A DNA stretch of 64,000 bases. Origin: Escherichia phage AV112. A program made the position numbers and the translations under genes. The stretch lies in sequence record OR352942.1, one strand, 5' to 3'. The notes under the pieces were generated by a model. The model ran no database searches. It was not told the DNA's origin and saw only the letters and a list, made by a program, of their open reading frames with translations. Positions 11,904 to 61,647 of this stretch are shown here, piece by piece. The stretch's first letter is position 1, and each line of letters begins with the position of its first letter.

Positions 11904-11958
11904 ATTATTCTCCTCTGGTTGATATGGTTATAATATCAAAACCAGAGGAGAAGTAAAC
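11904..11958 (-). promoter_or_regulatory. PeSL-like early promoter/stem-loop cassette
   Basis: Minus strand GTTTAC-N17-TATTAT; perfect 12-bp inverted repeat TCTCCTCTGGTT (11909-11920) / AACCAGAGGAGA (11940-11951) enclosing the -10 and containing the SD. Confidence 0.55.
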
Positions 11959-11962
11959 AACT

Positions 11963-12382
11963 TTATGCAAAAGATGCTGGACAATATTTTTTGATTTGGA
12001 ACTCAGGAACTACCATGAACTGTCCAGCGAAAACGATGTTATAAAGCTTAACACCATCTTCTACCCATTGGTCCGAAATAAAACCAGCAACTTGATTCGT
12101 TGTCCATGGAGACCCGTCAGTTGCAGAAGCAATAGTAAATTCATGGTCTTTTACAACTAAAACAGACCTGCATAGTTTCCATTTGAACGCTTTTTCTTCT
12201 GATTCAATGAATTGGCTTTTAACATAACCAATGTTACCATCGGCGTCACGAACTTTAACTTCGTTACGTCCAAAAACCGGATCACTCACAGAAAGAACTT
12301 CAACCAACTTCCCGGCAACTTTAGAGCGAGAAGCAACAGATACATATACGTAATCACCTGTAGAGAGATTTACAATATTCAT
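11963..12382 (-). CDS. hypothetical protein, member A of a tandem paralogue triplet (139 aa)
   Basis: Shares VSVASRSKVAGKLVEV and FISDQWVEDGVKLYNIVF motifs with the next ORF. Confidence 0.5.
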   Translation of the reverse strand: MNIVNLSTGDYVYVSVASRSKVAGKLVEVLSVSDPVFGRNEVKVRDADGNIGYVKSQFIESEEKAFKWKLCRSVLVVKDHEFTIASATDGSPWTTNQVAGFISDQWVEDGVKLYNIVFAGQFMVVPEFQIKKYCPASFA

Positions 12383-12391
12383 AATAATTCC

Positions 12392-12847
12392 TTAAGCTTT
12401 AAGAGGAGACACATAGCGAGTGATTTCAGATTCTTTAACAACTCGGAAGTCACCTAAGAATACGATATTGTATAACTTTTCGCCATCTTCAACCCATTGG
12501 TCACTAATGAAGCCACACATAGTATCAGTTTTGCTTGGATAACCGTATTCGTCGATGTAATCAAATTCTTTATCGGTTATAAATTCAACGCCTTTGCAAA
12601 GAGCCCATTTGAACTGTACATTAGGTTCAGTAGAAGCAAAATGAGCGCTCACACGAGTTTCCAGGAATTTAGGACTTACGTAAGCGTACTGAGTATCCTG
12701 ACGTCCAAAACTAGGAATGATTCGAACTTTAACTTCTTTAATGCGTCCCATGCCATTTGTGCGAAGTCCGACAACTTCAACCAGACGACCTGCGGCTTTA
12801 GACCGGGATGCAGTTGATACACGCTTAATTTCACCAATAGTAATCAT
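12392..12847 (-). CDS. hypothetical protein, member B of the paralogue triplet (about 151 aa; start at MITIGE)
   Basis: Motifs VSTASRSKAAGRLVEV and FISDQWVEDGEKLYNIVF; ORF-track start 12910 lies inside the promoter cassette. Confidence 0.5.
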   Translation of the reverse strand: MITIGEIKRVSTASRSKAAGRLVEVVGLRTNGMGRIKEVKVRIIPSFGRQDTQYAYVSPKFLETRVSAHFASTEPNVQFKWALCKGVEFITDKEFDYIDEYGYPSKTDTMCGFISDQWVEDGEKLYNIVFLGDFRVVKESEITRYVSPLKA

Positions 12848-12906
12848 AATTTTTCTCTCTTTGTTTAAGTTGAATTCATTATACTCCATCCGTCCTTGGA
12901 TGTACA
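12848..12906 (-). promoter_or_regulatory. PeSL-like early promoter/stem-loop cassette
   Basis: Minus strand TTGTACA-N-TATAAT; inverted repeat CATCC/GGATG; core ATTATACTCCA shared with 13431-, 55878- and 56871-type copies. Confidence 0.5.
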
Positions 12907-12909
12907 ACA

Positions 12910-13404
12910 TTAATTTAGAATATTAACTACTGCACTACGTGGAACCACACTAAAATCACCGGCATGAACAACGTTCAGAAGTTCAACACCGTCTTCAATC
13001 CACTGGTCAGTTACCCATCCATTTACTGGACCATCGAATGGGCGTCGAATTGAAACATATTTACACAATAAATCAGTAGGCTCAATAGGCTTAATCAGAG
13101 TACCGTACATACAAACGATATCCATATCAAAGTGGAGACCATCTTTAACAGGTGCTTCTTCAATCAACAGTTCAAAGTCAGTGCTTGGAAGGGCAGTAGT
13201 AGAAATTGTACCGTATGAATTTTTAATTTCTAAGAATAACCAAGGGCCTTCAACTTGTTTAATGAAGTTAACAATAGTGAAACTATTACCTTGAGTGGCG
13301 CCTAAAATTTCACAAAACTTTTCATAAGCTCGCACTGAAGCACCGTACCAGTTGATTTGTTTTTCGTCTTTCAGGATGTAAGTAGCCGTAGTATTGATAT
13401 TCAT
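12910..13404 (-). CDS. hypothetical protein, member C of the paralogue triplet (about 164 aa; ATG at 13404)
   Basis: C-terminal motif WVTDQWIEDGVELLNVVHAGDFSVV matches the family; the ORF-track start is a TTG inside the cassette. Confidence 0.45.
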   Translation of the reverse strand: MNINTTATYILKDEKQINWYGASVRAYEKFCEILGATQGNSFTIVNFIKQVEGPWLFLEIKNSYGTISTTALPSTDFELLIEEAPVKDGLHFDMDIVCMYGTLIKPIEPTDLLCKYVSIRRPFDGPVNGWVTDQWIEDGVELLNVVHAGDFSVVPRSAVVNILN

Positions 13405-13464
13405 AATGTTTTCCCGTTTGGTTAAGATAGAAAGATTATACTCCAACCATCCTTGGTTGTAAAC
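13405..13464 (-). promoter_or_regulatory. PeSL-like early promoter/stem-loop cassette; member of a roughly 45-70-bp direct-repeat family
   Basis: Minus strand GTTTAC-N18-TATAAT; GTTAAGATAGAAAGATTATACTCCAACC[A/G]TCCTTGGTTGTAAACTG recurs at 55862-55907. Confidence 0.55.
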
Positions 13465-13468
13465 TGTT

Positions 13469-14161
13469 TTATCGCTGTTTTACACTTAACGGGTCAGGAT
13501 TCTCAGGGACATCTTCAAGGCCAAGCGCATAACGCTGAGCATATTTTAACATCAAAATATCTTTAGCACAATCATGAATACTATCATGGGCAACGAATCC
13601 TTTTAGCGTACCCATCGGTAATGGACACATACTTAATCCTCGTGTCAACGAGTAAGCTTCGATTGCCGTACGAATATCGCGTTGAGCCCAGAATTTAACC
13701 GGTTCTAATTTATCAGTATCAATATCTGGTTCAAGAACACCTTCATCACGATAGAGGTCACGAATCAAATCGACCAATATCGGGAAGTCAAAGCTCATAC
13801 CACGGCACCACATCTGTGATTTCCATTGGTCAACTTTATTAGCTCGGCAATAATCTAAAAAGATTTTAATGCCTTCAAGCGTAGTGACATCGTCTTCAGA
13901 CGGAGCCAAGTTTTTACGTGCTTCAGCCGATTGTTCTTTCCACCATTTCATAGTGGATTTAGCAAAAACTCGCTTCCCTTTCTGAGAAGCCAAATTAAAT
14001 TTAATTCGCTTACCTCGTTGAACAAGTTCTTCAAATGATTCAACAACTTCAGGGTCGGAATTATATGCAATAACCGCAAGGTCAATAACAGCCGCTTTTG
14101 ATGTATTGCCGAATGTTTCAAAATCTATAATAACATCAGTGCTCATAATTTTCTCTCTCAA
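13469..14161 (-). CDS. dexA: exonuclease A (DexA), DEDD-type 3'-5' exonuclease
   Basis: Motif VIIDFETFGN at the N-terminus (DEDD exonuclease motif I); size near T4 DexA; directly downstream of dda. Confidence 0.75.
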   Translation of the reverse strand: MREKIMSTDVIIDFETFGNTSKAAVIDLAVIAYNSDPEVVESFEELVQRGKRIKFNLASQKGKRVFAKSTMKWWKEQSAEARKNLAPSEDDVTTLEGIKIFLDYCRANKVDQWKSQMWCRGMSFDFPILVDLIRDLYRDEGVLEPDIDTDKLEPVKFWAQRDIRTAIEAYSLTRGLSMCPLPMGTLKGFVAHDSIHDCAKDILMLKYAQRYALGLEDVPENPDPLSVKQR

Positions 14162-15471
14162 ATAAAATGGACGTCAAACCGACCACGAGTTGTGCCGACA
14201 TACAATAACTGTTTAGCTAATTCTGAATCGGCATAATGGATACACGGTGTATAAACAAAGGCCGTGTCAACAGACATACCCTGGGCCTTATGGAAGGTCG
14301 ATACTGGTAGTGCCTTCACCTTAGTGAACATACGTTTAGCATCCCAGAATTCGCTCCATGGAGCTTTACCACCTTTATTCCAAAATTTGTATGTTTCTGC
14401 GGTCTTAGCCAAAAACAAATTGAATTTATAAAGCTCTTCTTCAGAAGAAATAACCTTTATATCTTCGCGGATGTATTCTTCGTCGTCCCCATATGTTTCT
14501 ACTGTAAGATTCCAGTATCGTATCATATATTCGCCTGAAACACCACGTGCTTTAACAAATGTAGACGTTTCTACAGCATCTCGAATACGAACGAATTGGC
14601 CGTTATTGAAAAGCATTTCGGTAATATTTTTACCATCTAGCTTATATGTCTTAGTAAATGGCTCCTGTAGAACAATGACTTCGTCTTTAATAAATGGTTT
14701 TTCTGTTTCAAGAAGTTTTCGTCGAATAATTGAATTTAACTTGTCCACTGACTTATTTGTGAATGCCATCATTCGATTTTCGAAAAGGTCTTCAGGAGTT
14801 TTAACGACGTTAAAATAGTTCATCATATACGATTTAAGGTCTGTATATCCATGAACACCGTGCCCATCAACTACTTTATCGTAAATCCATTTGCCGTTAC
14901 GAATATCAGTCGCAACATCAATAATTGGTGCGTTGCTACGTTTAACTTCTGTAAGGTTGCATTGCACGAAGTCTTTGTGAGTGAAGAAAGGACTTAGATA
15001 CGCAGTTGATTCGCCTGGGTCTACCGGACGAATCTGGCATCGGTCGCCGATTCCAATTACTGTACACCATTTAGGGATACTAGCTAACATTATTTTAAAC
15101 AGAGAACGGTCGCACATTGACGCTTCATCAAATAACAGTACACGACACAAGGCTAAGTCGGGAACCTTTTTCTGTTCAAACAATACGTTTTCTTCGTATG
15201 TAGTTGGGTTGATTTTAAGAATGCTATGAATAGTCGATGCTTCTTGACCCGCAAGTTTGCTTAGAACCTTTTTAGCAGCATGTGTAGGGGCTGCTAAAAT
15301 AATACCTGATTCTCCAGAAGAAATAAGGGCTTCAACGATGAATCTAGTAAGGGTTGTTTTACCTGTACCGGCAGGCCCATTAATAGTTACGTGATGTTTC
15401 TTTTCTTTAATAGCGTTCATAACAACGTTGAAGGCGTTTTTCTGGCCTTCGGTCAAATCATCAAATGTCAT
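14158..15471 (-). CDS. dda: Dda DNA helicase (SF1B), 437 aa
   Basis: Walker A GPAGTGKTT, Walker B-like LLFDEASM; size and position as in T4. Confidence 0.9.
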   Translation of the reverse strand: MTFDDLTEGQKNAFNVVMNAIKEKKHHVTINGPAGTGKTTLTRFIVEALISSGESGIILAAPTHAAKKVLSKLAGQEASTIHSILKINPTTYEENVLFEQKKVPDLALCRVLLFDEASMCDRSLFKIMLASIPKWCTVIGIGDRCQIRPVDPGESTAYLSPFFTHKDFVQCNLTEVKRSNAPIIDVATDIRNGKWIYDKVVDGHGVHGYTDLKSYMMNYFNVVKTPEDLFENRMMAFTNKSVDKLNSIIRRKLLETEKPFIKDEVIVLQEPFTKTYKLDGKNITEMLFNNGQFVRIRDAVETSTFVKARGVSGEYMIRYWNLTVETYGDDEEYIREDIKVISSEEELYKFNLFLAKTAETYKFWNKGGKAPWSEFWDAKRMFTKVKALPVSTFHKAQGMSVDTAFVYTPCIHYADSELAKQLLYVGTTRGRFDVHFI

Positions 15472-15779
15472 CGTAAAGTCCCTGCAATTGGAATACTAAC
15501 AATACGGCCTGTGTCCAGGATTCGTTGATATAATTTTTGCGTCTCCGCATCTAGTTTAATGTGTTTCATTTCAAGCTTATTAAACCAGAACTTACGCGGA
15601 GTTTCGACCATTCTTAGAACTCCCATTTTTAAATCTGTTTTATACTGTGTTTTCAAAGTATCGAAAACTTTATCTGCAATATCCTTTCTAAAAAATACTG
15701 CAGGACGATGCTCATCAAGTGGAACCGGAACAGTAAATCCTTCCATATCTCGATAAACTATTGCATATACATAAACCAT
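15468..15779 (-). CDS. hypothetical protein (103 aa), dda.1 position
   Basis: ORF overlapping the dda start by 4 nt. Confidence 0.45.
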   Translation of the reverse strand: MVYVYAIVYRDMEGFTVPVPLDEHRPAVFFRKDIADKVFDTLKTQYKTDLKMGVLRMVETPRKFWFNKLEMKHIKLDAETQKLYQRILDTGRIVSIPIAGTLR

Positions 15780-15781
15780 AA

Positions 15782-16528
15782 TTAACCTTTAATCAGTTGG
15801 AATAATGATGCGCTAAGTGGTAAGCCACGTTTCAATTTTAATTTACCAATTAAACCAATCTTTTCAAAACGTTGCAGACCTTGGATAACTTTATCATATG
15901 TATCGAAAAGCGATTCAGCGTCAGTTAATTTAGTTTTAGTTTTCCAGTCAGAGCCTTTAAGAAGAACGTTGAGTTTAGTAAGTTCATGGCCTTCTGCTTG
16001 ATGTGAGCCATTAATGCGTGCTTTCAAAGCAACAATTCTAAGTTTAGATTCGTTAGATAAAGGTTGATTTTTCATCATGTTCGCCATATGCTTAACACGG
16101 TTTTCACGTTTTGCTCGGATTTTTAAAATAGTACCATAAACCTTTTTAATTTGGGCCCATTTCTTCTCGTCGAGATTAAGTTTCTCTACTTTACGGGCAG
16201 AAGGATTAGCGATACGTCTTGCAATGGCATCACGTTTCTCAATAAGTTCTTCTAATGTTAAATCAGAACGAGCCGTGTTATATTTTTTCTTAACTGGGAT
16301 AACATTACCTTTAATGTAGCCGATATCGTTATTAAAACGTTCTAAGGATAATTTCTCACCTTCAACAGAGTTATTGAAAGATTCACCTGAGTAAGCGCAG
16401 ACCTTTTGATCAAGAATGTTTTTAAGGTAATTAAAGTCTAAGTTAAAATCCTTAGAGCGTCTCTTTGCAGAAGCTCTGGTGTGGTCAAGACGACGATTGA
16501 TTTTGTTAATTTTATTATTTGATAACAT
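15782..16528 (-). CDS. srd: Srd-like protein (248 aa), basic/helical
   Basis: Size and position between dda.1 and modA as in T4; highly basic sequence; assignment from synteny. Confidence 0.5.
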   Translation of the reverse strand: MLSNNKINKINRRLDHTRASAKRRSKDFNLDFNYLKNILDQKVCAYSGESFNNSVEGEKLSLERFNNDIGYIKGNVIPVKKKYNTARSDLTLEELIEKRDAIARRIANPSARKVEKLNLDEKKWAQIKKVYGTILKIRAKRENRVKHMANMMKNQPLSNESKLRIVALKARINGSHQAEGHELTKLNVLLKGSDWKTKTKLTDAESLFDTYDKVIQGLQRFEKIGLIGKLKLKRGLPLSASLFQLIKG

Positions 16529-16606
16529 AATATTTTCCTCTGTCTTACGGACGTTAGGTCATTTAGCTGATAGGGTTATAATATCATGCCCTCAGGTAGT
16601 GTACAC
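16529..16606 (-). promoter_or_regulatory. PeSL-like early promoter cassette upstream of srd
   Basis: Minus strand TGTACA -35-like, TATTAT -10, GGA Shine-Dalgarno. Confidence 0.4.
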
Positions 16607-16616
16607 TCTTTTTTCG

Positions 16617-16647
16617 TAAAATGCTTTAATTTTTTATGTGTTATAAT
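16617..16647 (+). promoter_or_regulatory. plus-strand MotA-box middle-promoter-like sequence antisense to modA
   Basis: Plus strand aaaTGCTTTA (16618-16628) - 13 nt - TATAAT (16642-16647). Confidence 0.3.
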
Positions 16648-16680
16648 GGTTCTGAGTTCCATCCGGTTATTCCAATCCGG

Positions 16681-17289
16681 TCAGTAACCGACAATAGACA
16701 GATTCCAGATTGTATAACGTCCATCTTGAATAATAGAATCTACACGCAGTGTAGTCCCTATAGGGAGCATAAATTCACATTCGTCAGATATAAGTCTAGC
16801 ATTAGACCGTCTTGTCGCTTCAGGGAAAGCTCCATTGAACTCACAAGATGGTGCAGCCAGAATCATATTAAGCATATGTTCACGGAAGTTGAAAGCAAAT
16901 GGTGCATCTTTGATGCAGAACATATTAAATGTTCCATAAAAATTATATGAAGCGAAGTTACGTGCTACACCAAACACCGGACTAAAGCTCATTACTCTGT
17001 CAAATTTAATAATACTACCAATGCCTTTATCATCGAGTGTGGCCATAGTTTTCTTAGAGATTCCACGATACATTGTCTCAGGAACAGAAGACGTCCAATT
17101 TCTACGAACAATTGCACTTAAATCTTGTTGGATGCTGTCTGGCTTGTTTTCCATACATTGCCATAGTACACTTTGTTCAATGTCGCTGAATTGCTCATCG
17201 ATTTTGTACTGAAGCATATCTTGATAATCCGGGCATTGAGCACGTCGAACCATTTCTTCAATTTCACACTCGTTATACGGCATAAACAT
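16681..17289 (-). CDS. modA: ADP-ribosyltransferase (ModA-like), 202 aa
   Basis: ART motifs: YRG (Arg), FSPVFGVAR (STS-like), acidic motif near the C-terminus; paralogous to the next ORF; T4 synteny. Confidence 0.65.
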   Translation of the reverse strand: MFMPYNECEIEEMVRRAQCPDYQDMLQYKIDEQFSDIEQSVLWQCMENKPDSIQQDLSAIVRRNWTSSVPETMYRGISKKTMATLDDKGIGSIIKFDRVMSFSPVFGVARNFASYNFYGTFNMFCIKDAPFAFNFREHMLNMILAAPSCEFNGAFPEATRRSNARLISDECEFMLPIGTTLRVDSIIQDGRYTIWNLSIVGY

Positions 17290-17346
17290 TTAGATTTCTC
17301 CTGTGGTTGATAAAGGTATAGTATCATCATCGGAAGAGTTTGTACA
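17290..17346 (-). promoter_or_regulatory. PeSL-like early promoter cassette upstream of modA
   Basis: Minus strand TGTACA ... TACTAT, GGAGA Shine-Dalgarno. Confidence 0.4.
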
Positions 17347-17928
17347 CTAAAAATTCAACATTTTCAAATGAATGATTTTGTATAATCGAGATAAAGGGTC
17401 ATATTCTAAGTCTTCAATTTTCACAATCTCAAATCTAGAGATACCTGAGACCATGTACTCTTGTTCAGATTCAATCATATCTAGGACATCGATACGAGTT
17501 TCTTCCATAACATGCTTAGGGTTCTTTCCGGCAAGTACAATGTTAACCATGTTTTGGTAGTAATCAAAAATGAATGGAGCATTCCTGAGACTAAGAATAG
17601 TGTACGTCTGATATTCCCAGCTCCCGGAGAATTGACGAGCTGTACTGAAATCAGTTGTGAACGATGTTACTCGTCCAGGAGACCAATGACATCCAACAGA
17701 AAGAAGGGAAAGACGTTCTACTTCTTCTGGAGTTACACCGCGGTAGAGTTCTACTGGTACTGTAGAAGTCATATGCTTACGAACAAGATGGTCTAATTCA
17801 TAGTGGAAATCCGGGTCTTCCTTAGAATCAGTGCAAGCCCAGAGAATGTTTTGTTCTTGGCGGGTGAATTTGCTATCAATCAGATTTGTTAGGTATTCAC
17901 GTTCTTGAAGTTCAGATTGACATGTCAT
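17347..17928 (-). CDS. modB: ADP-ribosyltransferase (ModB-like), 193 aa
   Basis: ART motifs YRGV, SFTTDFSTARQF and EQEYMVSG; paralogue of modA. Confidence 0.65.
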   Translation of the reverse strand: MTCQSELQEREYLTNLIDSKFTRQEQNILWACTDSKEDPDFHYELDHLVRKHMTSTVPVELYRGVTPEEVERLSLLSVGCHWSPGRVTSFTTDFSTARQFSGSWEYQTYTILSLRNAPFIFDYYQNMVNIVLAGKNPKHVMEETRIDVLDMIESEQEYMVSGISRFEIVKIEDLEYDPLSRLYKIIHLKMLNF

Positions 17929-17984
17929 GATAGACCTCCATTTAAAGATAAGCCTATCATAACACGAGAGGAGGGAATGTAAAC
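17929..17984 (-). promoter_or_regulatory. early promoter cassette upstream of modB
   Basis: Minus strand GTTTAC-N17-TATGAT, GGAGG Shine-Dalgarno. Confidence 0.45.
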
Positions 17985-18144
17985 TACTTTTTAAGCTTTC
18001 CTACTAAAGGTCCATCAGGGCCGGGTTGTTCTAACATGAATAAGGATGCTTTAAAAAGCAATGTCAGCCCTTTCACCATTCGATACCATGTCTCAAAGTC
18101 TTTTTCCTTGATTTCTAGTAAGAATTTCTCTTTAAATTTCTCTT

Positions 18145-18333
18145 TCATTTCCAAGGACTCCATGGTGGAGGGTCGTCATAATAAGAGGCAAGGTCTTTCA
18201 GGGCTTCAACAGGTAAACTAAAGCCGTGACGTTGTATAATACTATCTAGTTCATCAACAAGTTCACTACGATGCACTTTAGGAGCCTCAACTTCGGGCTC
18301 ATCAAACATACTCATCAAGTCCATATTATTCAC
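18145..18333 (-). CDS. hypothetical acidic protein (62 aa)
   Basis: ORF-track ORF. Confidence 0.35.
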   Translation of the reverse strand: MNNMDLMSMFDEPEVEAPKVHRSELVDELDSIIQRHGFSLPVEALKDLASYYDDPPPWSPWK

Positions 18334-18790
18334 CGAGATAAAAACTAGCAGGTTCAGAGAATGTTTCTAGTGCTACGCCTTTTGTCTTAAAAAATTTCCA
18401 AATAGCTCGTTGCAAATGGATTAAATCTGCTAATGATGTAATAAAGTATTTTTTAGCAAAATACTTATGGTCTCGTTTTTCAAACAAATCTAAACGCTTT
18501 TCTGGATTCACATAAACGGCATTTTCCGTAGATTCATAACCTAAGTCCTTTATGCCTTCTTCAAGACTAAATGGAGAATTTTTAGAATGAGTAATAGCTC
18601 CAACTCGCTCTACACGAATTTTGTAACCTTTAGGAATCTGCAATTTGCAGAATTCTTCTACGATATATTGCGGATTATTTAGACTTTTGTTAATGAGAAT
18701 AGCTATTTCTAGTGGAGTCTTATCTTCTACTGGTATATGTTTAAACGACTTGGCTTCAAGCAAATACATTTTAAATAACATAGCATCCAT
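18326..18790 (-). CDS. hypothetical protein (154 aa); Mrh position
   Basis: ORF between soc and modB where T4 has mrh; no motif recognised. Confidence 0.4.
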   Translation of the reverse strand: MDAMLFKMYLLEAKSFKHIPVEDKTPLEIAILINKSLNNPQYIVEEFCKLQIPKGYKIRVERVGAITHSKNSPFSLEEGIKDLGYESTENAVYVNPEKRLDLFEKRDHKYFAKKYFITSLADLIHLQRAIWKFFKTKGVALETFSEPASFYLGE

Positions 18791-18996
18791 TATAATTTCC
18801 TCGATGGTTCACCCATATAAAGTTTTACAATACGTTCGCCTTCATCTTCGATGAGCTTCTCTTCGTGTTTCTGGAATTCTTTAGCCATATTCTCTTCAAG
18901 AACATCCAGCCAATCTTCCGGACCGACACCATCGTCCCAGCTTTTAAACCATCTTACCACTCTGTTCATTCGCAGCTCCCTGAGCTTGAACCACAA
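18790..18996 (-). CDS. hypothetical protein (68 aa)
   Basis: ORF-track ORF. Confidence 0.35.
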   Translation of the reverse strand: MWFKLRELRMNRVVRWFKSWDDGVGPEDWLDVLEENMAKEFQKHEEKLIEDEGERIVKLYMGEPSRKL

Positions 18997-19166
18997 TCAG
19001 AATAACTTGTCCCAGAATCACCAGGCCAAGACGATACGTATGAATGATTATAATCGGAAGAGCTTGAAGCATTAACCTGTTTTGTTTTTGGACGAACAAC
19101 TTCTTCCATCATTCCGTCGCCGATATATTCCCAACTTTTTTCGTGTGTATCAGGAATAGGCATCAT
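18966..19166 (-). CDS. hypothetical protein with Ser-rich, Cys-containing C-terminus (about 66 aa; start at MMPIPD)
   Basis: The ORF-track ORF 18966..19289 overlaps the upstream gene; internal ATG at 19166 follows its stop with a GAAGG Shine-Dalgarno. Confidence 0.35.
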   Translation of the reverse strand: MMPIPDTHEKSWEYIGDGMMEEVVRPKTKQVNASSSSDYNHSYVSSWPGDSGTSYSDCGSSSGSCE

Positions 19167-19179
19167 ACCTTCGCCTGGT

Positions 19180-19407
19180 TTAACAGCAAACAACTTCTTC
19201 AGCATCGTAAGCATTAATTGTTCCTCGAACAAAACGAACACCACCATCGTCCCAACGGATTTCGGCGTTAAATTTGACGTCTTCACCATCCATCATGAAT
19301 GAGTGTACGACTACATCATCGTAATATCCAAGACCGTATTTCAACGAAACTTCTTGAGCAATCAAAGCACCTAATGTGTTATTAGGTTTAATCCAACGAT
19401 TTAACAT
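19180..19407 (-). CDS. hypothetical protein (about 75 aa; start at MLNRW)
   Basis: ORF-track start 19476 lies in the promoter/terminator region; ATG at 19407 has a GAGGAG Shine-Dalgarno. Confidence 0.4.
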   Translation of the reverse strand: MLNRWIKPNNTLGALIAQEVSLKYGLGYYDDVVVHSFMMDGEDVKFNAEIRWDDGGVRFVRGTINAYDAEEVVCC

Positions 19408-54592: not shown

Positions 54593-54897
54593 TATAATGT
54601 TCTCTCAAATTTGTGGAAGCATTTACGGCATTTCAATTTCAAGTTATCAGTGGTCCAGTTAACCAGTTGGACTTGGATAGTTCCACATTCCGGGCATGGA
54701 TGTTTTGCTGCCGATTTGGCAGCATTTTCACGTCGTTCAACCATTTTCATTATTTCGTTCCATGCCGGAGGAACGAACTCTTCTTCACCGTGGATTTTAT
54801 CTCGCTGAACAAATTCAATCTTTGAACTATCGTCAATAAACTTAACCAAGCTGTGATTAGTGCTCATGTCAATATCCTCTAAAAGACGTAGTTTCAT
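54592..54897 (-). CDS. zinc-ribbon protein (101 aa)
   Basis: CPECG ... CRKC pairs near the C-terminus. Confidence 0.4.
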   Translation of the reverse strand: MKLRLLEDIDMSTNHSLVKFIDDSSKIEFVQRDKIHGEEEFVPPAWNEIMKMVERRENAAKSAAKHPCPECGTIQVQLVNWTTDNLKLKCRKCFHKFERTL

Positions 54898-55847
54898 TAT
54901 AAAACCTCAATGGCATTTCGTAAACCATCCGCTTTTGCATTCAGAGCTTTTAATGATTTAGTTTGTTCTGCAATCTGGGCTTCAACTTCTTTCAGACGAG
55001 ATTTGAGGTATTCGCGTTCTTCTCTTAAGTTATCAACTTTTTCTGCTTTAGGCTCTTTAATAGGCTTAGGTTTATACGTATTAGGGTTCTTCAGTTTAAT
55101 TAGAATGCGTGAACTGTACAGCATTGAACCATTATCTTCGGTTTCGTCATACATTTCCACTACGTCCATCATCTCCACCATCGTGCAGAGTTTATAAGAC
55201 AACGAACGAATAGTTTTGTTGTGCTTATTAATTTCTTTAGAGTTCATGGTGCCTAGATTACGCGAGTAGTAATAAGGAACCTGGATATCAACTGACAATG
55301 ATGCGTTACCATTGCCAGTTGGTTTGAATACTGCAGTAACCCAATCTTTAACATGAACTTTATTTGTACGGCCATCACCGCCAGTGAATAATTTACGAGA
55401 ATGTTTAAAAAGCATATTCACTTGGTTATTGAATTCACAAGCAAATTTATCAGCAAATTTAGTTTCAGGAATGGTAGATAACCAATCAGCTAAATGAGTC
55501 TTTTTAACATCGTTAATAATAGTAAATTCAACCAAATCAGTTTTAGATGTCACAGATTTAATAAAGCTCGGCTTCATAAAGTTTTTAATGTTATCGCGAG
55601 CTACAGTAGAAGATAATAAACGAGAACGTTTGAACCATTGAAGCAGTGTCCCTAATGAATGAGAATACGCATTCTGAGTATCTTTACAGATATGATTTTC
55701 TTGGCCTGTGTATGTACCAAAATCGCGAAGAATACCGCTTACTACAACTCGGTGTGGAACATCAAATCCTAATGAACCAGAAGCACGTTGGGCATGAACG
55801 TTAGCGATAAGACCTGCAAAATAATCAATGTAATGTGAACGTGTCAT
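54897..55847 (-). CDS. hypothetical protein with C-terminal coiled coil (316 aa)
   Basis: C-terminal heptad-rich stretch KVDNLREEREYLKSRLKEVEAQIAEQTKSLKALNAKADGLRNAIEVL. Confidence 0.45.
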   Translation of the reverse strand: MTRSHYIDYFAGLIANVHAQRASGSLGFDVPHRVVVSGILRDFGTYTGQENHICKDTQNAYSHSLGTLLQWFKRSRLLSSTVARDNIKNFMKPSFIKSVTSKTDLVEFTIINDVKKTHLADWLSTIPETKFADKFACEFNNQVNMLFKHSRKLFTGGDGRTNKVHVKDWVTAVFKPTGNGNASLSVDIQVPYYYSRNLGTMNSKEINKHNKTIRSLSYKLCTMVEMMDVVEMYDETEDNGSMLYSSRILIKLKNPNTYKPKPIKEPKAEKVDNLREEREYLKSRLKEVEAQIAEQTKSLKALNAKADGLRNAIEVL

Positions 55848-55905
55848 AATATTTTCCTCTCGTTAAGATAGAAAGATTATACTCCAACCGTCCTTGGTTG
55901 TAAAC
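55848..55905 (-). promoter_or_regulatory. PeSL-like early promoter cassette; direct repeat of 13405-13464
   Basis: GTTAAGATAGAAAGATTATACTCCAACCGTCCTTGGTTGTAAACTG: 45 bp with 1 mismatch to the copy at 13421. Confidence 0.55.
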
Positions 55906-55909
55906 TGAT

Positions 55910-56842
55910 TTATGATTTTAATGCATTCATTGCGTTAAAAAGTTTAGAGTACTGCAACTGGAGCTTGGTAACTACTTGTTGAGCATCACGAAGCTTAGCT
56001 TGTGCTTTGTCAAGTTCAACAGACAGTTGATCCACAGTGCCTTTGATTTGATTATAATAGTAATCTTCGGCAGGAAGAAGGCCGTTAGAGATTTCCAGTT
56101 TAGTCGTCGGTGTGCCGTTAAACATAACAGGTTGTGCTGAAGCTGCATTAATCTTACCGATAGTCGGGGCGACAATAATTGACGCTTCGAACGTTGCATT
56201 TTCCTTTTTAAGATTTTGATAGTATTCAGAGTCTTTGTGCCACCATGGCGCAGGAACCTTTTTACCAATAGATACACGAGCCTGGATAGCGATATGGCCC
56301 TTATTCTTGATAACGTCGATAATATTAAGCTCACGAGAATAAATTGCTTTAATCTGGTGAATATTATCACCTAACACTTCCAACGCTTGGTGGAATACAC
56401 GAGCAACGTTATCATTCTTAGGTTTATACGTAAGAGTGAACTCGTTCTCACTGATAACCATGATTTCTAACTTATCGTAAGTATATTTCAAATGTTTCAT
56501 GTTAATTGCTTGAGGACGAATACGAGAAGCAATGGCCATCAGATTGTTAAGGTTATTCCGGAACTGCTTAGCGAAATATTGTCCTTCACCACCAATACAA
56601 AAATTACGAAGTTTCTGTTTGGCTAATAAACGGCTGAACTCACCGTTTTTAATGAACTCTTTAACGGGTGTGTTAGTAACGCATTCAAATTGAGTAAACT
56701 TACGAGAAGTAATCCCATAATATGAACAGATTTCCTCAATCTCTTCAGGAGTCTTTACAGGCATACGGATAGGATTAGGACCTGGGGTATATGCGTTCGA
56801 GGTAAATTCTTTGATAAGTTCTCTACGTGTAATAGAAGCCAT
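55910..56842 (-). CDS. hypothetical protein with C-terminal coiled coil (310 aa)
   Basis: C-terminal DQLSVELDKAQAKLRDAQQVVTKLQLQYSKLFNAMNALKS. Confidence 0.45.
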   Translation of the reverse strand: MASITRRELIKEFTSNAYTPGPNPIRMPVKTPEEIEEICSYYGITSRKFTQFECVTNTPVKEFIKNGEFSRLLAKQKLRNFCIGGEGQYFAKQFRNNLNNLMAIASRIRPQAINMKHLKYTYDKLEIMVISENEFTLTYKPKNDNVARVFHQALEVLGDNIHQIKAIYSRELNIIDVIKNKGHIAIQARVSIGKKVPAPWWHKDSEYYQNLKKENATFEASIIVAPTIGKINAASAQPVMFNGTPTTKLEISNGLLPAEDYYYNQIKGTVDQLSVELDKAQAKLRDAQQVVTKLQLQYSKLFNAMNALKS

Positions 56843-56897
56843 TTTATATTCCTCATGTTGAAAAATTTATTATACTCCAACCATCCTTGGTTGTACA
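56843..56897 (-). promoter_or_regulatory. PeSL-like early promoter cassette (same repeat family)
   Basis: TATTATACTCCAACCATCCTTGGTTGTACA. Confidence 0.5.
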
Positions 56898-57893
56898 TCA
56901 TTCCTTAAGAAGTTTTACTACTTGAATAAGATTAGCTCGTTCTGTTTTATTTTTACCGTTTAAGCCTGCTAATCGTGAGATTTCATCGTCAGTCTGTTGA
57001 ATAGTTACATTAAGTTCGTTAATCAAAGCTTCAAAGTATTTGATTTGCTCAGCATGTTTTGATTCAAATTTCTGAACCGGAATAACGTCTTGGTTTAGTT
57101 CATCAATAAGGTCTTTAAGAGCATCTTCTTGATTGATATCATATTCAACTTCTTTTATTTCTTCAACGAGCTCGTCTTTATATCTAACGTCTTTTAGTCC
57201 TGGTGCTGGTCCTGAAATCTCTTCTTTAAGAGTACAAACATATCCAATACGGTATCCAATGCCGTCTCGCTTGATATCAACTTCGTCAATAAATCCACAA
57301 TGTTTAAGACCAGAGCCGATTAAGTCAAAATATCCTTGACGACGTCCTTCAAACGTTACACGAACTACTAAGACAGTTTTACCTGCAACCTTTTGAAGCT
57401 CACATTTATAAAAGTTTGTTGAACCTGAATAACGTGGATGAGTTTTAAAGTTCATCTGACGATCTAGGCCCATTTGTAAGCGTGCTGATACGGCCATAAA
57501 ACGTGTTTGGTTCTCGTTAAGATGAGCAACAATCCATTTCAAAGGCATTTTACACTGTTCACGACCGAACAAATCAGTACGTCCTAGATTACGCAGGATG
57601 TTGTTAGAGTTAATCATCGACAGAACATTAAGTTTATTCAGCGCGCTGAAGATTCCATCAGCCATTGATTTTCCGTAACCTTTACACGCTTTAATAAGCG
57701 CTCGCGGTAGATTAGCATAGATTTCAGACGGCATATGAAAATCAAATTTACTAGTCAGTAATTGATGAACTTGGATAGCAATTTGCTCATAATTAAGTGC
57801 TCTGCGATCATTATGATCTTTAAACCACACTTTAATCTGTGAAGCACATAAACCGTTAATTTCATGTTTTACCGCATCAGATGTAATGCTCAT
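56898..57893 (-). CDS. hypothetical protein with C-terminal coiled coil (331 aa)
   Basis: C-terminal EQIKYFEALINELNVTIQQTDDEISRLAGL... Confidence 0.45.
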   Translation of the reverse strand: MSITSDAVKHEINGLCASQIKVWFKDHNDRRALNYEQIAIQVHQLLTSKFDFHMPSEIYANLPRALIKACKGYGKSMADGIFSALNKLNVLSMINSNNILRNLGRTDLFGREQCKMPLKWIVAHLNENQTRFMAVSARLQMGLDRQMNFKTHPRYSGSTNFYKCELQKVAGKTVLVVRVTFEGRRQGYFDLIGSGLKHCGFIDEVDIKRDGIGYRIGYVCTLKEEISGPAPGLKDVRYKDELVEEIKEVEYDINQEDALKDLIDELNQDVIPVQKFESKHAEQIKYFEALINELNVTIQQTDDEISRLAGLNGKNKTERANLIQVVKLLKE

Positions 57894-57955
57894 ATCTATT
57901 TCCTCAGATTGAATTGGAACTCAAAACCATTATAACCCGTCCTTGGGTAAAGCGT
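57894..57955 (-). promoter_or_regulatory. degenerate promoter cassette (MotA-box-like aaaCGCTTTA - 13 nt - TATAAT)
   Basis: Minus strand CGCTTTACCCAAGGACGGGTTATAAT; related to the repeat family. Confidence 0.35.
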
Positions 57956-58483
57956 TTATGCGTGAACCGTCTTTAAACGTTCTTCAAATTTCCGAAGAGT
58001 ACTAATACGTTCTGCTTTCTGTTTTGTATAGTTTGCAATACGTTCTGAAGTGAGAGCGTATCGTTCGTTTACTGTTTCTTTCATGAAGTCAGGGATTTCA
58101 CGAGAAGCTTTAATTTCATCAAACTTATCGAGTACTGCCTGGTCTTCAGCGATTAAATTTTCGTACATCTCGATATCTTTCTTGATGAAGTCGATATCTT
58201 CCTGGGTTACTTTGGATAAACGAGATGCTTTATCCTTTTTGTATTGCTCGTTAGTTTCACGAGACCAGAATAATGTACGTTTTTTGTTAGTGTTTTTGTA
58301 GACTTCCACAATTCCAACTGAATCGATGATAGCAATCCAATTCCAGCGAGATTTGAAAATCTGACCTCCGTCCACGGTAATCTCGTTACCATAAGCAACA
58401 TCATTAAAGAACTTGCTTTGTGCTTCAGATTTAAATTTACCGTCGTTATAATTTACCAGGTTGAAAATATCTTTAGCGTTCAT
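57956..58483 (-). CDS. hypothetical protein (175 aa)
   Basis: ORF-track ORF downstream of a PeSL cassette. Confidence 0.4.
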   Translation of the reverse strand: MNAKDIFNLVNYNDGKFKSEAQSKFFNDVAYGNEITVDGGQIFKSRWNWIAIIDSVGIVEVYKNTNKKRTLFWSRETNEQYKKDKASRLSKVTQEDIDFIKKDIEMYENLIAEDQAVLDKFDEIKASREIPDFMKETVNERYALTSERIANYTKQKAERISTLRKFEERLKTVHA

Positions 58484-58540
58484 GTTTTACCTCCAGTAGT
58501 TGATAGGTCTATAATAACACAACCATAGACCTTGTAAACA
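58484..58540 (-). promoter_or_regulatory. PeSL-like early promoter/stem-loop cassette
   Basis: Minus strand GTTTAC-N17-TATTAT; shares a 31-bp core with 24819-24849 but the downstream stem arm is replaced by ATAGACC, which pairs with GGTCTAT. Confidence 0.55.
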
Positions 58541-58541
58541 A

Positions 58542-58829
58542 CTAAAAGAAACTTTTTTCGGTATTTTTTCCACTGAACCAAACCGACTTCGGGACTTTCT
58601 GTAATTTTTCGGATTTAAGTTTCTCTTCCTGTTCTTTCTTATATGCATCCTTGTCGTACTGGAACAATTCTAAGGCATTCTTTTGTAGACGGTCTAAGGT
58701 AATTAAGGCTTTAGTTTTTCCTTTCAAGGAAGAGTCCTGGCGAACCTCCTCGCTATATTGCATCGTAGAACTAACCATACGATGAGCATACAGTTCGACT
58801 GCGGCTTTAATTTTTTGCATAAAATCCAT
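58542..58829 (-). CDS. hypothetical protein (95 aa)
   Basis: AGAGGA Shine-Dalgarno before the ATG. Confidence 0.4.
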   Translation of the reverse strand: MDFMQKIKAAVELYAHRMVSSTMQYSEEVRQDSSLKGKTKALITLDRLQKNALELFQYDKDAYKKEQEEKLKSEKLQKVPKSVWFSGKNTEKSFF

Positions 58830-58967
58830 AACATATCCTCTTTGATTTGTACACCATTATTTTTAAATATTTCTATGCCCTCAGTAGGTTCCTGGTGTCC
58901 TTCTTTGAGGTAAGCCATATGATTATTCATCTTTATGGCTTTTGTTACCTCAGAACTTCCTATAAGC

Positions 58968-59948
58968 TTATTTCAGTAAAGTAACTTCAGAGATTTCCTC
59001 CCAACCATCTTTATCAGTTGAAATAAAATCTGCTACATAAAGAGCCGTACGTAATGATACATTGCGAAGACGAGATACATTAGCCTTCATCCAGGACAAT
59101 GCTTTATACGTTTCTGCATCTGTCAGACCACGTTTCTGCATCATGTCAGTAGATAATATTACATCTTCAACTCGAACCATAATCTCTTCATTAGAGTGTA
59201 CTCCAAGGTCGAGATACACTGAACGAGATACTAAAGCTTGAAGGTGTGGGGCAAGTTTCGAACCGCGTTCTAACTCTTTATCGATATCAACGTTTGTAAT
59301 GAAAACGATAGTACCTTCAAACTCAAATTCTTTATCAATACCCTTATCATCGAGATAAGATGACGCAGTGCTCCAACAAACTTTGCGTTTATCTCCAGTA
59401 TCTAATGCTGCTTTAAGAAGGTTCAAGATGTCCATATCTGAGAATACGTCAACGTCGTCGATTAAGAGAACGCTGTCTGCATCACGGTTGAGCCAAAGTT
59501 GTTCGTAAAGGCCAATACCGGAGATTTTACCATTAATGCTTTTGTATTTGATGAAACCATTATCATTAGCGTTATTAAGTGCTTTATCCAGAGAATACGT
59601 CTTACCAATACCGGCTGCACCTGAAATAATGAGTGAACGAATTTTGCCATCGATAATGCCATTCGTCATCATGTTCATTACTTTAAAGCGTTTGTTGATA
59701 CGAGTTTTCATATCTTCAGTGCTTTCAACAACTGCAACTGGTGACGTCTCAACTCCTTCCATTACGATGTCTGATTTGAAGACCCATACTCCACGTTCAG
59801 ACCCATCAATCATAACGAAAATTTTACCATCACCTAAGTGGGAACATTCAGGATTAAGCTTTGCTGGGAACCATGTCTTTGTGGCAACATAAGAACCAGA
59901 GATTTCGTTATTACGATAAATACCTTTTTTGATTTGAACGTTGAACAT
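58968..59948 (-). CDS. P-loop (AAA-like) ATPase, about 326 aa (start at MFNVQ)
   Basis: Walker A GAAGIGKT, Walker B LLIDDVD; the second ATG has a GGAG Shine-Dalgarno. Confidence 0.5.
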   Translation of the reverse strand: MFNVQIKKGIYRNNEISGSYVATKTWFPAKLNPECSHLGDGKIFVMIDGSERGVWVFKSDIVMEGVETSPVAVVESTEDMKTRINKRFKVMNMMTNGIIDGKIRSLIISGAAGIGKTYSLDKALNNANDNGFIKYKSINGKISGIGLYEQLWLNRDADSVLLIDDVDVFSDMDILNLLKAALDTGDKRKVCWSTASSYLDDKGIDKEFEFEGTIVFITNVDIDKELERGSKLAPHLQALVSRSVYLDLGVHSNEEIMVRVEDVILSTDMMQKRGLTDAETYKALSWMKANVSRLRNVSLRTALYVADFISTDKDGWEEISEVTLLK

Positions 59949-60015
59949 TTTATTCTCCAATTTACTCATTTCGTTTCGATAGGTCTATAATAACATGTTT
60001 AAAGCAAAAGTAAAC
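59949..60015 (-). promoter_or_regulatory. PeSL-like early promoter cassette
   Basis: Minus strand GTTTAC-N17-TATTAT with GATAGGTCTATAATAAC core. Confidence 0.45.
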
Positions 60016-60017
60016 AA

Positions 60018-60236
60018 TTATTTGCGACGAGATTTTTTGGTAAGAGGTTGAAAGAACACTGCTTTACCTGCTGGGGTTAAGGTGACTCGTAATGCATTAC
60101 CGATTCCTAAGGATGCTTTAACTAGACCTTTAGCTTTCAGTTCACCGAATGCTTGACGTTGGTCTGCATCACGAGTGTTAACCATAAGACCTTTATCACC
60201 TGCTTCACGAATCATTTCTAACATTTTGGTTTTCAT
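60018..60236 (-). CDS. hypothetical basic protein (about 72 aa; start at MKTKM)
   Basis: ORF-track first ATG lies in the PeSL cassette; GAGGAG Shine-Dalgarno before the internal ATG. Confidence 0.4.
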   Translation of the reverse strand: MKTKMLEMIREAGDKGLMVNTRDADQRQAFGELKAKGLVKASLGIGNALRVTLTPAGKAVFFQPLTKKSRRK

Positions 60237-60292
60237 TTTGTTCTCCTCTTGTTTTGATAGGTCTATAATAACATATCCTAAAAGCATGTACA
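60237..60292 (-). promoter_or_regulatory. PeSL-like early promoter cassette
   Basis: TGTACA -35-like, TATTAT -10, GATAGGTCTATAATAAC core. Confidence 0.45.
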
Positions 60293-60314
60293 CTACTTTT
60301 TAAAAATATTTTAA

Positions 60315-60340
60315 CCCCCTAAAGGGACCCGAAGGTCCCC
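60315..60340 (-). terminator. UUCG-tetraloop terminator hairpin
   Basis: Minus strand GGGGACC-ttcg-GGTCCC followed by TTTAGGGGGTT. Confidence 0.5.
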
Positions 60341-60344
60341 ACAT

Positions 60345-60626
60345 TTACTTATCGCACTTAGCAACATAATTAGGCATATCACAGAATACGGAGCGAGTAA
60401 CTACTCGGCCCTTTGACCATGCTTCAGTTGCTTGTCCGGCTGTGCTATTAATATAGCTTGATCTAATGTTCTCAATACCCTGAGAATGTGATGCATTTAC
60501 CGAACCATTAGAAGACCCAGAAGACTGGTTACCACCAGCTCCTGCGCTACCGCTGGCTGCACCCGTGGTAGCACCAACAGAGAATGCCATCATTACTGCG
60601 AATAAACCAATTACTATTTTTTTCAT
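60345..60626 (-). CDS. secreted Gly/Ser-rich protein with signal peptide (93 aa)
   Basis: MKKIVIGLFAVMMAFSVGA signal peptide; low-complexity G/S region; two C-terminal Cys. Confidence 0.45.
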   Translation of the reverse strand: MKKIVIGLFAVMMAFSVGATTGAASGSAGAGGNQSSGSSNGSVNASHSQGIENIRSSYINSTAGQATEAWSKGRVVTRSVFCDMPNYVAKCDK

Positions 60627-60657: not shown

Positions 60658-61647
60658 TTATTTATAGTAAGAATTATGATTTTCGAGATAGACTTGTTCA
60701 AGGAAGTCATCCCAGAAACTCATATCTACTTTTTGTTGCATACCGTTCTTGGCAGCTTGTTCTGATGCATGTTCAACTTGGTCAACGATATCTTCTAGGA
60801 ATTCTTGTACAGTTTTAAACGTATGTTTACCAAGCTTAACATCGAGAATAAATGGAGCATCCTGAAGTGGGTAAACCAGGTCGCCGGTTTTATAAATTTC
60901 TAATAGTTGAAGTCCACCACGACATGCATGACTCAATGCTTTCCAGTCAATACCTTCGTTAGCTTCTGCCTTACGAGCACGTTCACCATAGTTCTCTTCC
61001 AGTTTAACCAGGATGGCATTGAACTCTTTATTGGTTAACGTGTCTTGGAATTTACGGTCTAACAGATTATAGAATGTTTGCTTACCTGTTTTCTCGTTTT
61101 CAGTTTCAACCCACGAAGCAAATTCACCTACAGGCAGAACATTCTTCATATGTGATAAACGAATTACTGCACCATTATCAAAGTATTGTCCCCATTCATT
61201 AGAACGTTTAAGGGCTTGACGAAGAACAGCCAGTCGAGAACCCTTGACACCGTATTTAGAAGCTTGTTTACGGACATACCCTAAATAAGATTTCATGTTA
61301 GTGGTATAGAAACGAGACCTGTTATCTTGAATATACTTCCATACATCAGGCAAATCGGATTTAACTACTAAACTTGGTGGAGTGTGAAGCATATCTAATG
61401 CGACGGTTTCGCCATCTGCAGCTAGTTTAAAGAAATATTTGAGACTATACAACTCATGGTCCACGTCGTCTTTTGTGTTCTTAGAAGATGTGTTATTTGT
61501 GTTCTTGCTCATATGTTCTTTAACGTTACCGGTCAAGATATCACGAGCATGAGGGACATAAATTTCTTTAAAATCGACGTCAGATTCAGGAGTAGACGTT
61601 CCATAAAGGTGGCTACCAAAGTAGCCTTTCATAATTGTTTTCATCAT
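60658..61647 (-). CDS. nucleotidyltransferase-fold (pol-beta superfamily, MNT-like) protein, 329 aa
   Basis: N-terminal GSHLYGTSTPESDVD matches the G-S-x(9-13)-D-x-D NTase motif. Confidence 0.45.
   Translation of the reverse strand: MMKTIMKGYFGSHLYGTSTPESDVDFKEIYVPHARDILTGNVKEHMSKNTNNTSSKNTKDDVDHELYSLKYFFKLAADGETVALDMLHTPPSLVVKSDLPDVWKYIQDNRSRFYTTNMKSYLGYVRKQASKYGVKGSRLAVLRQALKRSNEWGQYFDNGAVIRLSHMKNVLPVGEFASWVETENEKTGKQTFYNLLDRKFQDTLTNKEFNAILVKLEENYGERARKAEANEGIDWKALSHACRGGLQLLEIYKTGDLVYPLQDAPFILDVKLGKHTFKTVQEFLEDIVDQVEHASEQAAKNGMQQKVDMSFWDDFLEQVYLENHNSYYK

Follow-up and report, generated by a model that had tools for sequence, protein, structure and literature searches.

A T4 clone lacking accessory genes failed to plate on ECOR17, and disruption of dsr1 in this host restored infection (PMC9391042). 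When supplied on a plasmid, T4 nrdC.5, an early gene that the authors called uncharacterized, allowed the clone to plate on MG1655 with Dsr1 from ECOR17 (Srikant, Guegler and Laub, eLife 2022, PMC9391042). Dsr1 contains a SIR2 domain and is thought to deplete NAD+ (PMC9391042); its TPR sensor domain, common to Avs7, is reportedly triggered by the phage major capsid protein, a late protein (2026 bioRxiv preprint, PMC12803255). Here we analyzed a 64,000-nucleotide (nt) stretch of Escherichia phage AV112 (OR352942.1), called the window below, and in it a block of 5,073 bases (positions 54897-59969) that holds an RB69-type nrdC.5 between two other large open reading frames (ORFs). Profile comparisons make it highly probable that the three large proteins are tandem paralogs, and the likeliest reading of this family, since T4 NrdC.5 is published as countering Dsr1, is counter-defense.

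Two further systems resemble such a set in what they do. DSAD1, the DSR2 inhibitor of an SPbeta-group phage, neutralizes a sirtuin that senses a late structural protein; its target is DSR2 and not Dsr1, a sequence relationship to NrdC.5 is not expected, and the likeness is one of function alone. The T-even proteins IPI, IPII and IPIII are, like the paralogs, an accessory set, with members that each counter another host defense. They are packaged in the capsid and injected with the DNA, whereas the nrdC paralogs would be cytoplasmic early products; the two groups are unrelated in sequence, and we noted no capsid-targeting sequence in the paralogs. The third relevant description is of promoter-early stem-loop (PeSL) cassettes, which lie in hyperplastic regions of T4-type phages (PMC4122927; PMC2839356) and have a T4/PST-type consensus of TTTACW-N17-TAYWAT (PMC4122927).

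The block has 100% DNA identity with Escherichia phage AV113, an RB69-like phage. It matches 705 phage records, almost all from T4-like phages of Escherichia, Shigella, Yersinia and Salmonella, and 151 of them cover at least 80% of the query at one place, mostly at 95-99% identity. The genes for endonuclease VII (gp49) and the NrdC thioredoxin are found upstream, their products 89% and 92% identical to those of T4. Because of these two neighbors and the matches to AV113 and T4-like records, we assign the block to the nrdC.x accessory region of an RB69-like phage. All of its genes are on the minus strand, as are the other window features located below. In a BLASTP comparison with the annotated T4 region, the block ORFs pair one-to-one with T4 nrdC.3, nrdC.5, nrdC.6, nrdC.8, nrdC.9 and nrdC.10. 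We regard these gene identities as nearly certain, and the block corresponds to the T4 accessory region nrdC.3-nrdC.10 in its RB69-type form. There is no NrdC.4 copy in the AV112 block, and the nrdC.7 homologue adjoins nrdC in the window instead of lying between nrdC.6 and nrdC.8 as in T4.

A first-pass annotation, made from the letters of the window alone, had listed ORFs of 316, 310, 331 and 175 amino acids (aa) and a Walker A/B ATPase in the block, had described its promoter cassettes as modular and had located it in the hyperplastic, accessory DNA near nrdC. The five ORFs are present exactly as it described, and the placement is correct, but its gene list overlooked a 95-aa gene at 58542-58829. 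It had also seen no assignable motifs in the three large proteins, which are in fact counterparts of T4 nrdC.3, nrdC.5 (DUF7235) and nrdC.6. All of the genes are ordinary T4-like ORFs already in the catalogues, and together they do not make up a new kind of system.

The three large proteins are called here by their lengths. The 316-aa protein, w316 (54897-55847), is of the NrdC.3 type. It is 56% identical to T4 NrdC.3 over the full length by BLASTP and matches T4 NrdC.4 weakly (E 1.5e-5); it falls in phrog_1435 at E 7e-106, the family to which T4 NrdC.3 and NrdC.4 belong too, and has a precomputed Pfam assignment to PF26897. Protein w310 (55910-56842) is the RB69-type NrdC.5 and belongs to Pfam DUF7235 (PF23882) and phrog_2351. 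It scores 373.4 bits against the DUF7235 model, for which the cut-off is 30, and its residues 15-309 align to model positions 1-307; T4 NrdC.5 likewise covers the model from end to end, at 420.6 bits. The RB69 protein annotated as NrdC.5 is about 91% identical to w310. T4 NrdC.5 itself is like w310 in its DUF7235 match, gene order, length class and C-terminal coiled coil, but the two are only 24% identical (BLASTP, E 7e-10), and the anti-Dsr1 activity was shown for the T4 protein alone (PMC9391042). The gene order in question places the w310-type gene between nrdC.6-type and nrdC.4-/nrdC.3-type genes, and the ORF-cluster order 15-16-(19)-24-3 is common to the window, T4 and related loci. The largest of the three, w331 (56898-57893), is NrdC.6-type: like T4 NrdC.6 it is in phrog_2257 (E 7e-127), and its precomputed Pfam family is PF26899. 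Identity between the two is 29-38%, reaching 38% over the N-terminal 127 aa, and the C-terminal coil of w331 is 58% identical to that of T4 NrdC.6. Thus w316 and w331 are orthologues of uncharacterized early-region ORFs of T4.

In T4 (NC_000866), the last approximately 36 residues of the NrdC.6 coil are encoded in a different frame, past the annotated stop, at about 12011-12120 on the minus strand (corresponding to window 56901-57010), and other T-even phages have an intact 295-aa NrdC.6 ORF. The T4 reference nrdC.6 appears to be frameshifted or truncated. For the window genes, we calculated pairwise, gene-wide ratios of nonsynonymous to synonymous rates (dN/dS) against three close relatives. 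The values were 0.09-0.13 for w316, 0.14-0.29 for w310 and 0.07-0.11 for w331, with similar values in flanking genes; the three large ORFs are therefore real genes under purifying selection.

Compared directly with one another by BLAST, w316, w310 and w331 give no match. Since w316 does have a weak match to NrdC.4, we tested relatedness with profiles. We took 37 loci from IMG/VR, anchored on NrdC.10, clustered their downstream ORFs and compared the family alignments by hhalign. At full length, a chain of matches connects the families: NrdC.3 with NrdC.4 (98% probability, E 2e-13, 225 columns), NrdC.4 with NrdC.5 (83%, E 9e-6, 218 columns), NrdC.5 with cluster 37 (95%, E 3e-8, 214 columns), and cluster 37 with NrdC.6 (92%, E 6.5e-7, 186 columns). 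Cluster 37, together with clusters 116, 63, 41, 55, 66 and 76, comprises single large ORFs that lie by or just upstream of nrdC.2 in other T4-like genera; where nrdC.2 was undetected, they lie upstream of nrdC. Six of these single-ORF clusters were merged into a bridge profile, against which each family was run both complete and with the last 65 residues removed to eliminate the coil. The w316/NrdC.3+4 family matches the bridge at 97.3% (E 2e-11), and at 96.2% (E 2.1e-9, 145 columns) in its coil-free form. For w310/NrdC.5 the values are 97.7% (E 2.4e-12) and 90.8% (E 1.2e-6, 137 columns), and for w331/NrdC.6 they are 96.8% (E 2.6e-10) and 94.2% (E 1.2e-7, 131 columns). All three families align to identical columns of the bridge, 130-145 of them.

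The controls were clean. About 24 unrelated clusters from these loci scored at most 2%, with one at 12.5%; NrdC.8, which served as the coiled-coil control, gave 0.2% against the paralog family; and none of 36 query alignments that had been reversed or column-shuffled exceeded 2.6%. Externally built PHROG models give matching cross-hits among the paralog families, and an independent MAFFT alignment (A6; 33 sequences from 11 subfamilies) has the shared elements in identical order. With the coil-free bridge matches, the controls and decoys, and the ordered motifs of A6 all in agreement, paralogy is well supported, and we consider it highly probable that w316, w310 and w331 are tandem paralogs of one family. 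By the same profile evidence, we propose that nrdC.3, nrdC.4, nrdC.5, nrdC.6 and their single-copy counterparts form one superfamily. Pfam and PHROGs hold these families separate, and in the literature we searched, nrdC.3/4/6 and NrdC.5 are nowhere stated to be a single superfamily.

The predicted layout is common to all three proteins: a variable N-terminus, a core of some 115-170 residues that is rich in alpha-helix, a linker that varies, and at the C-terminus a coil some 50 residues long. The core carries three motifs. Motif 1 has the consensus [FL][KR]xS+xLSxxxAxxxL+NF. Motif 2, FxxxFxxNxxxxLxxGxRLxxGddR, is followed by a probable strand region, and motif 3, LxxALxxMdxVe, by the variable linker. 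In w316 the core spans aa 65-235 (55143-55655) with motif 1 as LQWFKRSRLLSSTVARDNIKNF, motif 2 as FADKFACEFNNQVNMLFKHSRKLFTGGDGR and motif 3 as LSYKLCTMVEMMDVVE; in w310 it spans aa 60-175 (56318-56665) with VKEFIKNGEFSRLLAKQKLRNFC, FAKQFRNNLNNLMAIASRI and FHQALEVLGDNIHQIKAI in the same order; and in w331 it covers aa 77-206 (57276-57665) with motif 1 as FSALNKLNVLSMINSNNILRNLG and motif 2 as LKWIVAHLNENQTRFMAVSARLQMGLDRQ. Outside the three motifs, the cores are about 10-15% identical.

The coils were located with a home-made heptad heuristic, and each of the three large proteins has a predicted amphipathic helix of at least four heptads. Scores above the 95% shuffle threshold are limited to the C-terminal ends, at residues 267-316 of w316, 260-310 of w310 and 278-310 of w331. 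Taken with the AlphaFold helices, the coiled coils are placed at aa 267-316 of w316 (54900-55049, heuristic only), aa 257-310 of w310 (55913-56074) and aa 278-331 of w331 (56901-57062). In w310, AlphaFold builds one long helix at 257-308 (predicted local distance difference test [pLDDT] 56-77), which is the sole moderate-confidence part of the model; the w331 helices at 280-308 and 314-329 are of low confidence. The family profile gives sub-significant matches in PDB, nearly all in the C-terminal segment and mostly to coiled coils (tetherin, GCN4, myosin, prefoldin). The paralogs have a terminal pattern in common, seen in w316 as L..NA...L, and the shared coil ends in KLxxAxxxLK. A coil of this kind probably renders the paralogs oligomeric. 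The C-terminal coiled coils proposed in the first-pass annotation are thus borne out by heptad scores, predicted helices and weak PDB coil matches. That annotation had further suggested that the three proteins may be analogous modules; the shared architecture stands, although with a common core, three motifs and a related coil the proper word is homologous.

The family is confined to T4-like phages of enterobacteria. Word-based homologue searches returned close relatives only, and an exhaustive HMMER run of a mixed profile against 1.84 billion representative proteins produced just 10 matches. By tblastn against the phage collection, the w310 type is found in 144 records, the w331 type in 741 and the w316 type in 653, all of them Tevenvirinae of enterobacteria (hosts Escherichia, Shigella, Yersinia, Salmonella and Citrobacter). 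A detectable member lies beside or just upstream of nrdC.2 in most of the 37 loci, and in two others the corresponding slot holds a large ORF not linked to the family. Copy number is one per locus in most genera, three in RB69-like phages and in another group, and four in T4. The paralogs are 19-38% identical to those of the window, or undetectable by BLAST, in loci where gp49, NrdC and NrdC.10 hold 70-92% identity. At T-even loci with near-equal gp49, NrdC and NrdC.10 identities (L026/L027 versus T4, L028 and L029), NrdC.3 is either 77-78% or 54-56% identical to w316. Two allele types despite equal neighbor identities point to allelic replacement of NrdC.3 by recombination. Together with the varying copy number and the divergence of paralogs beyond that of their neighbors, they mark the family as one with fast long-term turnover and mosaicism. 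One locus, L040 (IMGVR_UViG_650627003_000001), has seven large ORFs of 205-348 aa at 11051-19200, downstream of nrdC.10. They are unrelated to the paralog family or to anything in the other loci, a completely different cargo in the same position.

Searches by structure and against defense catalogues yielded little. AlphaFold models built from shallow alignments of 17-18 rows had a pLDDT of 39.0 for w310 and 42.5 for w331, and only the C-terminal helix is usable. With these low-pLDDT models, Foldseek against BFVD retrieved only sequence orthologues (RB69 NrdC.5 and phage moha) at template modeling scores of 0.17-0.21, and nothing else below E 0.1. Neither the three proteins nor the family profile had a significant match in PDB by sequence or profile search. 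None of 7 proteins matched a defense-system model in PADLOC, and NCBIfam and Rfam gave no meaningful match for the block.

What, then, might the family do? In the explanation we favor, the paralogs would be made early in infection and, probably as oligomers, would bind host immune sensors, each paralog with a different target. Neutralization of a sensor would precede late structural triggers such as the major capsid protein. By its kinship with T4 NrdC.5, w310 would have anti-Dsr1 or similar activity; w316 and w331, as members of the same family, would be anti-defense proteins as well; and the paralogs would act through direct sensor binding. We give this whole explanation, an early-expressed set of defense-sensor inhibitors, a probability of about 0.55. 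The guess that the three proteins are "receptor or effector" modules is plausible in its second half, as an anti-host factor, given the activity of T4 NrdC.5 against Dsr1 (PMC9391042), while a receptor role found no support.

Several points weigh against counter-defense. The published phenotype is that of NrdC.5; there is none for NrdC.3, NrdC.4 or NrdC.6, and the literature we searched held no paper on nrdC.3, nrdC.4 or nrdC.6 function. At 24% identity to the T4 NrdC.5 that was tested, w310 could have a different target. NrdC.5 could also act on Dsr1 indirectly, as no mechanism has been published, and with poor models and no solved relative, a sensor-binding or decoy mechanism is without structural support. 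Mimicry of the capsid protein and a likeness to DSAD1 both start from a low prior as far as sequence goes. The family grouping leans on a bridge that assumes homology of its own six member families, which are linked pairwise or via shared partners at 51-92%. The promoter cassette of w331 looks defective. Finally, a dN/dS of at most 0.29 among close relatives carries no gene-wide sign of the positive selection expected of an arms race.

The phenotype of a single member leads to the most serious competing account, in which only the NrdC.5 lineage is anti-defense and the NrdC.3/4- and NrdC.6-type paralogs have since taken on different tasks in early host takeover, for example by binding metabolic, transcription or nucleoid proteins of the host. 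It draws on the low identity of the cores outside the motifs, on NrdC.5 being the sole member with a published phenotype, and on a neighborhood that contains other host modifiers, for example the T4 Lon protease inhibitor Pin. We judge it less likely than the favored explanation. Variable copy number, rapid turnover, confinement to a single phage group and the fact that laboratory hosts do not require these genes are what one expects of anti-defense families, though they are not decisive against it. That the resemblance is compositional, a matter of generic coiled coils on unrelated N-terminal domains, has been largely refuted: the three proteins do lack direct BLAST matches to each other, and profile probabilities do fall once the coil is removed, yet coil-free they all match the same 130-145 bridge columns at 91-96% (E 1e-6 to 2e-9), decoys and the NrdC.8 coiled-coil control reach no more than 2.6%, and the motifs are ordered and conserved.

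Two other accounts concern the block as a whole. The coiled-coil trio might work with NrdC.8, NrdC.9 and NrdC.10 as one ATPase-driven machine held together by coiled coils; the genes are contiguous on one strand, NrdC.8 too has a short C-terminal coil, and NrdC.8 is restricted to phage groups with NrdC.5 and NrdC.6. But the ATPase is single-copy and 66-100% identical in the 37 loci, while the paralogs come in 1-4 copies that are often unrecognizable by BLAST. Moreover, the intervening genes differ between phage groups, several block genes have their own promoter, NrdC.8 is unrelated to the paralog family, and plasmid-borne NrdC.5 alone sufficed against Dsr1 (PMC9391042). A single machine is thus very improbable. 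Still harder to sustain is the notion that the ORFs are selfish or neutral cargo, moved about by PeSL cassettes with no benefit to the phage. It would fit a hyperplastic region with repeated cassettes on the flanks of ORFs that are dispensable in laboratory hosts, but not purifying selection at dN/dS 0.07-0.29, the retention of these genes in hundreds of phage genomes, or the host-range phenotype of NrdC.5 (PMC9391042).

Counter-defense by sensor inhibition also admits a bolder version, which we put forward tentatively and with considerable doubt. In it, nrdC.3/4/5/6 would be an expandable repertoire of oligomeric inhibitors or decoys, each tuned to another host immune sensor (for example, of the capsid-detecting Dsr1/Avs7 TPR type), with copies gained, lost and exchanged by recombination at PeSL cassettes. 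PeSL cassettes are elements thought to shuffle genes within hyperplastic regions, and they may have had a role in duplicating the nrdC paralogs. If such a repertoire exists, the number and type of paralogs would help set the host range of T4-like phages. Should the targets of the paralogs differ, the locus would be a compact case of a lytic phage diversifying its counter-defense by tandem duplication, relevant to predicting or engineering the host range of therapeutic T4-like phages. Either way, four long-standing "hypothetical" genes of T4 are joined in one family with a member of proven anti-Dsr1 activity, and these orphans become testable.

Upstream of the large ORFs lie short repeated promoter cassettes, which before w316 and w310 are clearly of the early sigma-70 type. 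The w316 cassette (55876-55904) reads TTTACA-N17-TATAAT, with 11/12 matches and a CAACC/GGTTG stem within the spacer, and the w310 cassette (56869-56897) reads TGTACA-N17-TATAAT, with 10/12 matches. The two share a 27-nt repeat (D6; 55876-55902 in the w316 cassette) that is 96% identical between them, and the cassette sequence ACAACCAAGGAYGGTTGGAGTATAAT has 4 copies in the window versus 0 expected. Each of the three ORFs had been credited with its own promoter. This holds for w316 and w310 and fails for w331, whose degenerate cassette, read from the sequence at 57929-57951 as TTTACC-N11-TATAAT, retains CCAAGGACGG but is about 6-7 nt shorter and was not flagged by the promoter scan. Because its spacer is only 11 nt, it is probably not a functional sigma-70 promoter by itself.

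A second cassette type (D1), TGTTATTATAGACCTATC, has 8 matches in the window against 0.07 expected and is used by w175, w333 and a small downstream ORF. Its copy before w175 (58511-58538) has TTTACA-N16-TATTAT inside an 11-bp stem, and another copy precedes w333 (59987-60014). As RNA, the w175 cassette folds at -16.9 kcal/mol (z -4.15), with the -10 element within the hairpin. The first type has a short, weak stem of 5-6 bp (-6.2 to -6.9 kcal/mol, z -0.55 to -1.76). Like the PeSL elements described before (Arbiol 2010, PMC2839356; Comeau 2014, PMC4122927), the window repeats are about 26-30 nt long, dispersed and of the form TTTACW-N17-TAYWAT, and they flank variable ORFs in a hyperplastic region; a candidate stem-loop occupies or surrounds the spacer. 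They differ in the short, weak stem of the first type, the conservation of which rests on one compensatory variant. That variant is in one of two more w316/w310-type cassettes distant from the block, at 12878-12903 and 13435-13460: in the former, both arms of the spacer stem have changed in a compensatory way, CATCC/GGATG replacing CAACC/GGTTG, which suggests that the small stem is under selection.

At the other end of w316, a promoter-like TTTACG-N17-TATAAT (54896-54924) lies within its last codons, and its stop (54897) shares a single base with the start ATG of the nrdC.2 homologue, as TAATG. From these two features, nrdC.2 may be separately transcribed and also translationally coupled.

Three conserved neighbors complete the block. 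The 175-aa protein w175 (57956-58483) is the NrdC.8 homologue (phrog_2274; 82% identical to T4 NrdC.8), with a short C-terminal coil at aa 146-173 by the heptad heuristic. The 95-aa protein w95 (58542-58829) is NrdC.9-like (Pfam DUF7203, PF23833, E 8e-24; 35% identity to T4 NrdC.9). The 333-aa protein w333 (58968-59969) is the NrdC.10 P-loop NTPase (phrog_1250, E 1e-161; 77.5% identity to T4 NrdC.10), which is single-copy and 66-100% identical across the 37 loci. The Walker A/B ATPase that had been predicted here is indeed present, with Walker A GAAGIGKT at aa 116-123 (59601-59624) and Walker B VLLIDD at aa 166-171 (59457-59474); these positions are invariant in 9 homologues except I169. The protein has an N-terminal extension of about 100 residues. 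The models AAA_22, AAA_16, nSTAND3 and AAA_14 score below Pfam cut-offs on it, and its PDB profile matches (E at least 0.12) are at the P-loop level only; with no match in PADLOC or NCBIfam either, these searches place it in no defined AAA+ or STAND clade. Its grouping with the three coiled-coil proteins did not hold up, as no link was found: the ATPase is conserved, variation is seen in the paralogs and in the genes that separate them from it, two of the paralogs have their own promoters, and NrdC.5 alone sufficed. NrdC.8, NrdC.9 and NrdC.10 are therefore best described as conserved neighbors, not demonstrably part of the paralog system.

The names in public records can mislead at this locus. 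Many GenBank records (for example, OR352943.1, OR352947.1 and MZ868638.1) label all seven block genes "thioredoxin," and our family searches found a thioredoxin domain in none of the seven. These labels apparently were carried over from the nrdC.x locus names. One paper treats nrdC.8 as a nucleotide reductase; because family and homology searches showed no reductase similarity, this label too probably derives from the locus name.

Between nrdC.10 and nrdC.11 (60018-60626), the window has two small genes that are absent from T4. One encodes a 93-aa protein (60345-60626, phrog_2243) that has a stretch rich in Gly and Ser and an N-terminus resembling a signal peptide. The other, which has a good Shine-Dalgarno sequence and a promoter cassette to itself, encodes a 72-aa protein (60018-60236, phrog_6001); a 91-aa version of this gene with a GTG start probably does not have the true start. 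Between the 93-aa ORF and the next promoter, at about 60313-60335, is a strong GC-rich hairpin, GGGGACCTTCGGGTCCC, whose loop is UUCG and after which comes an A/T-rich tract; it is likely a terminator or an RNA-stabilizing element. The next gene upstream (60658-61647) encodes the NrdC.11 nucleotidyltransferase (phrog_388), which matches Pfam RlaP, the "RNA repair pathway DNA polymerase beta family," at E 8e-13. NrdC.11 is 84% identical to the copy in phage JQD51, versus 97.6% for the rest of the block, so this gene is locally mosaic too.

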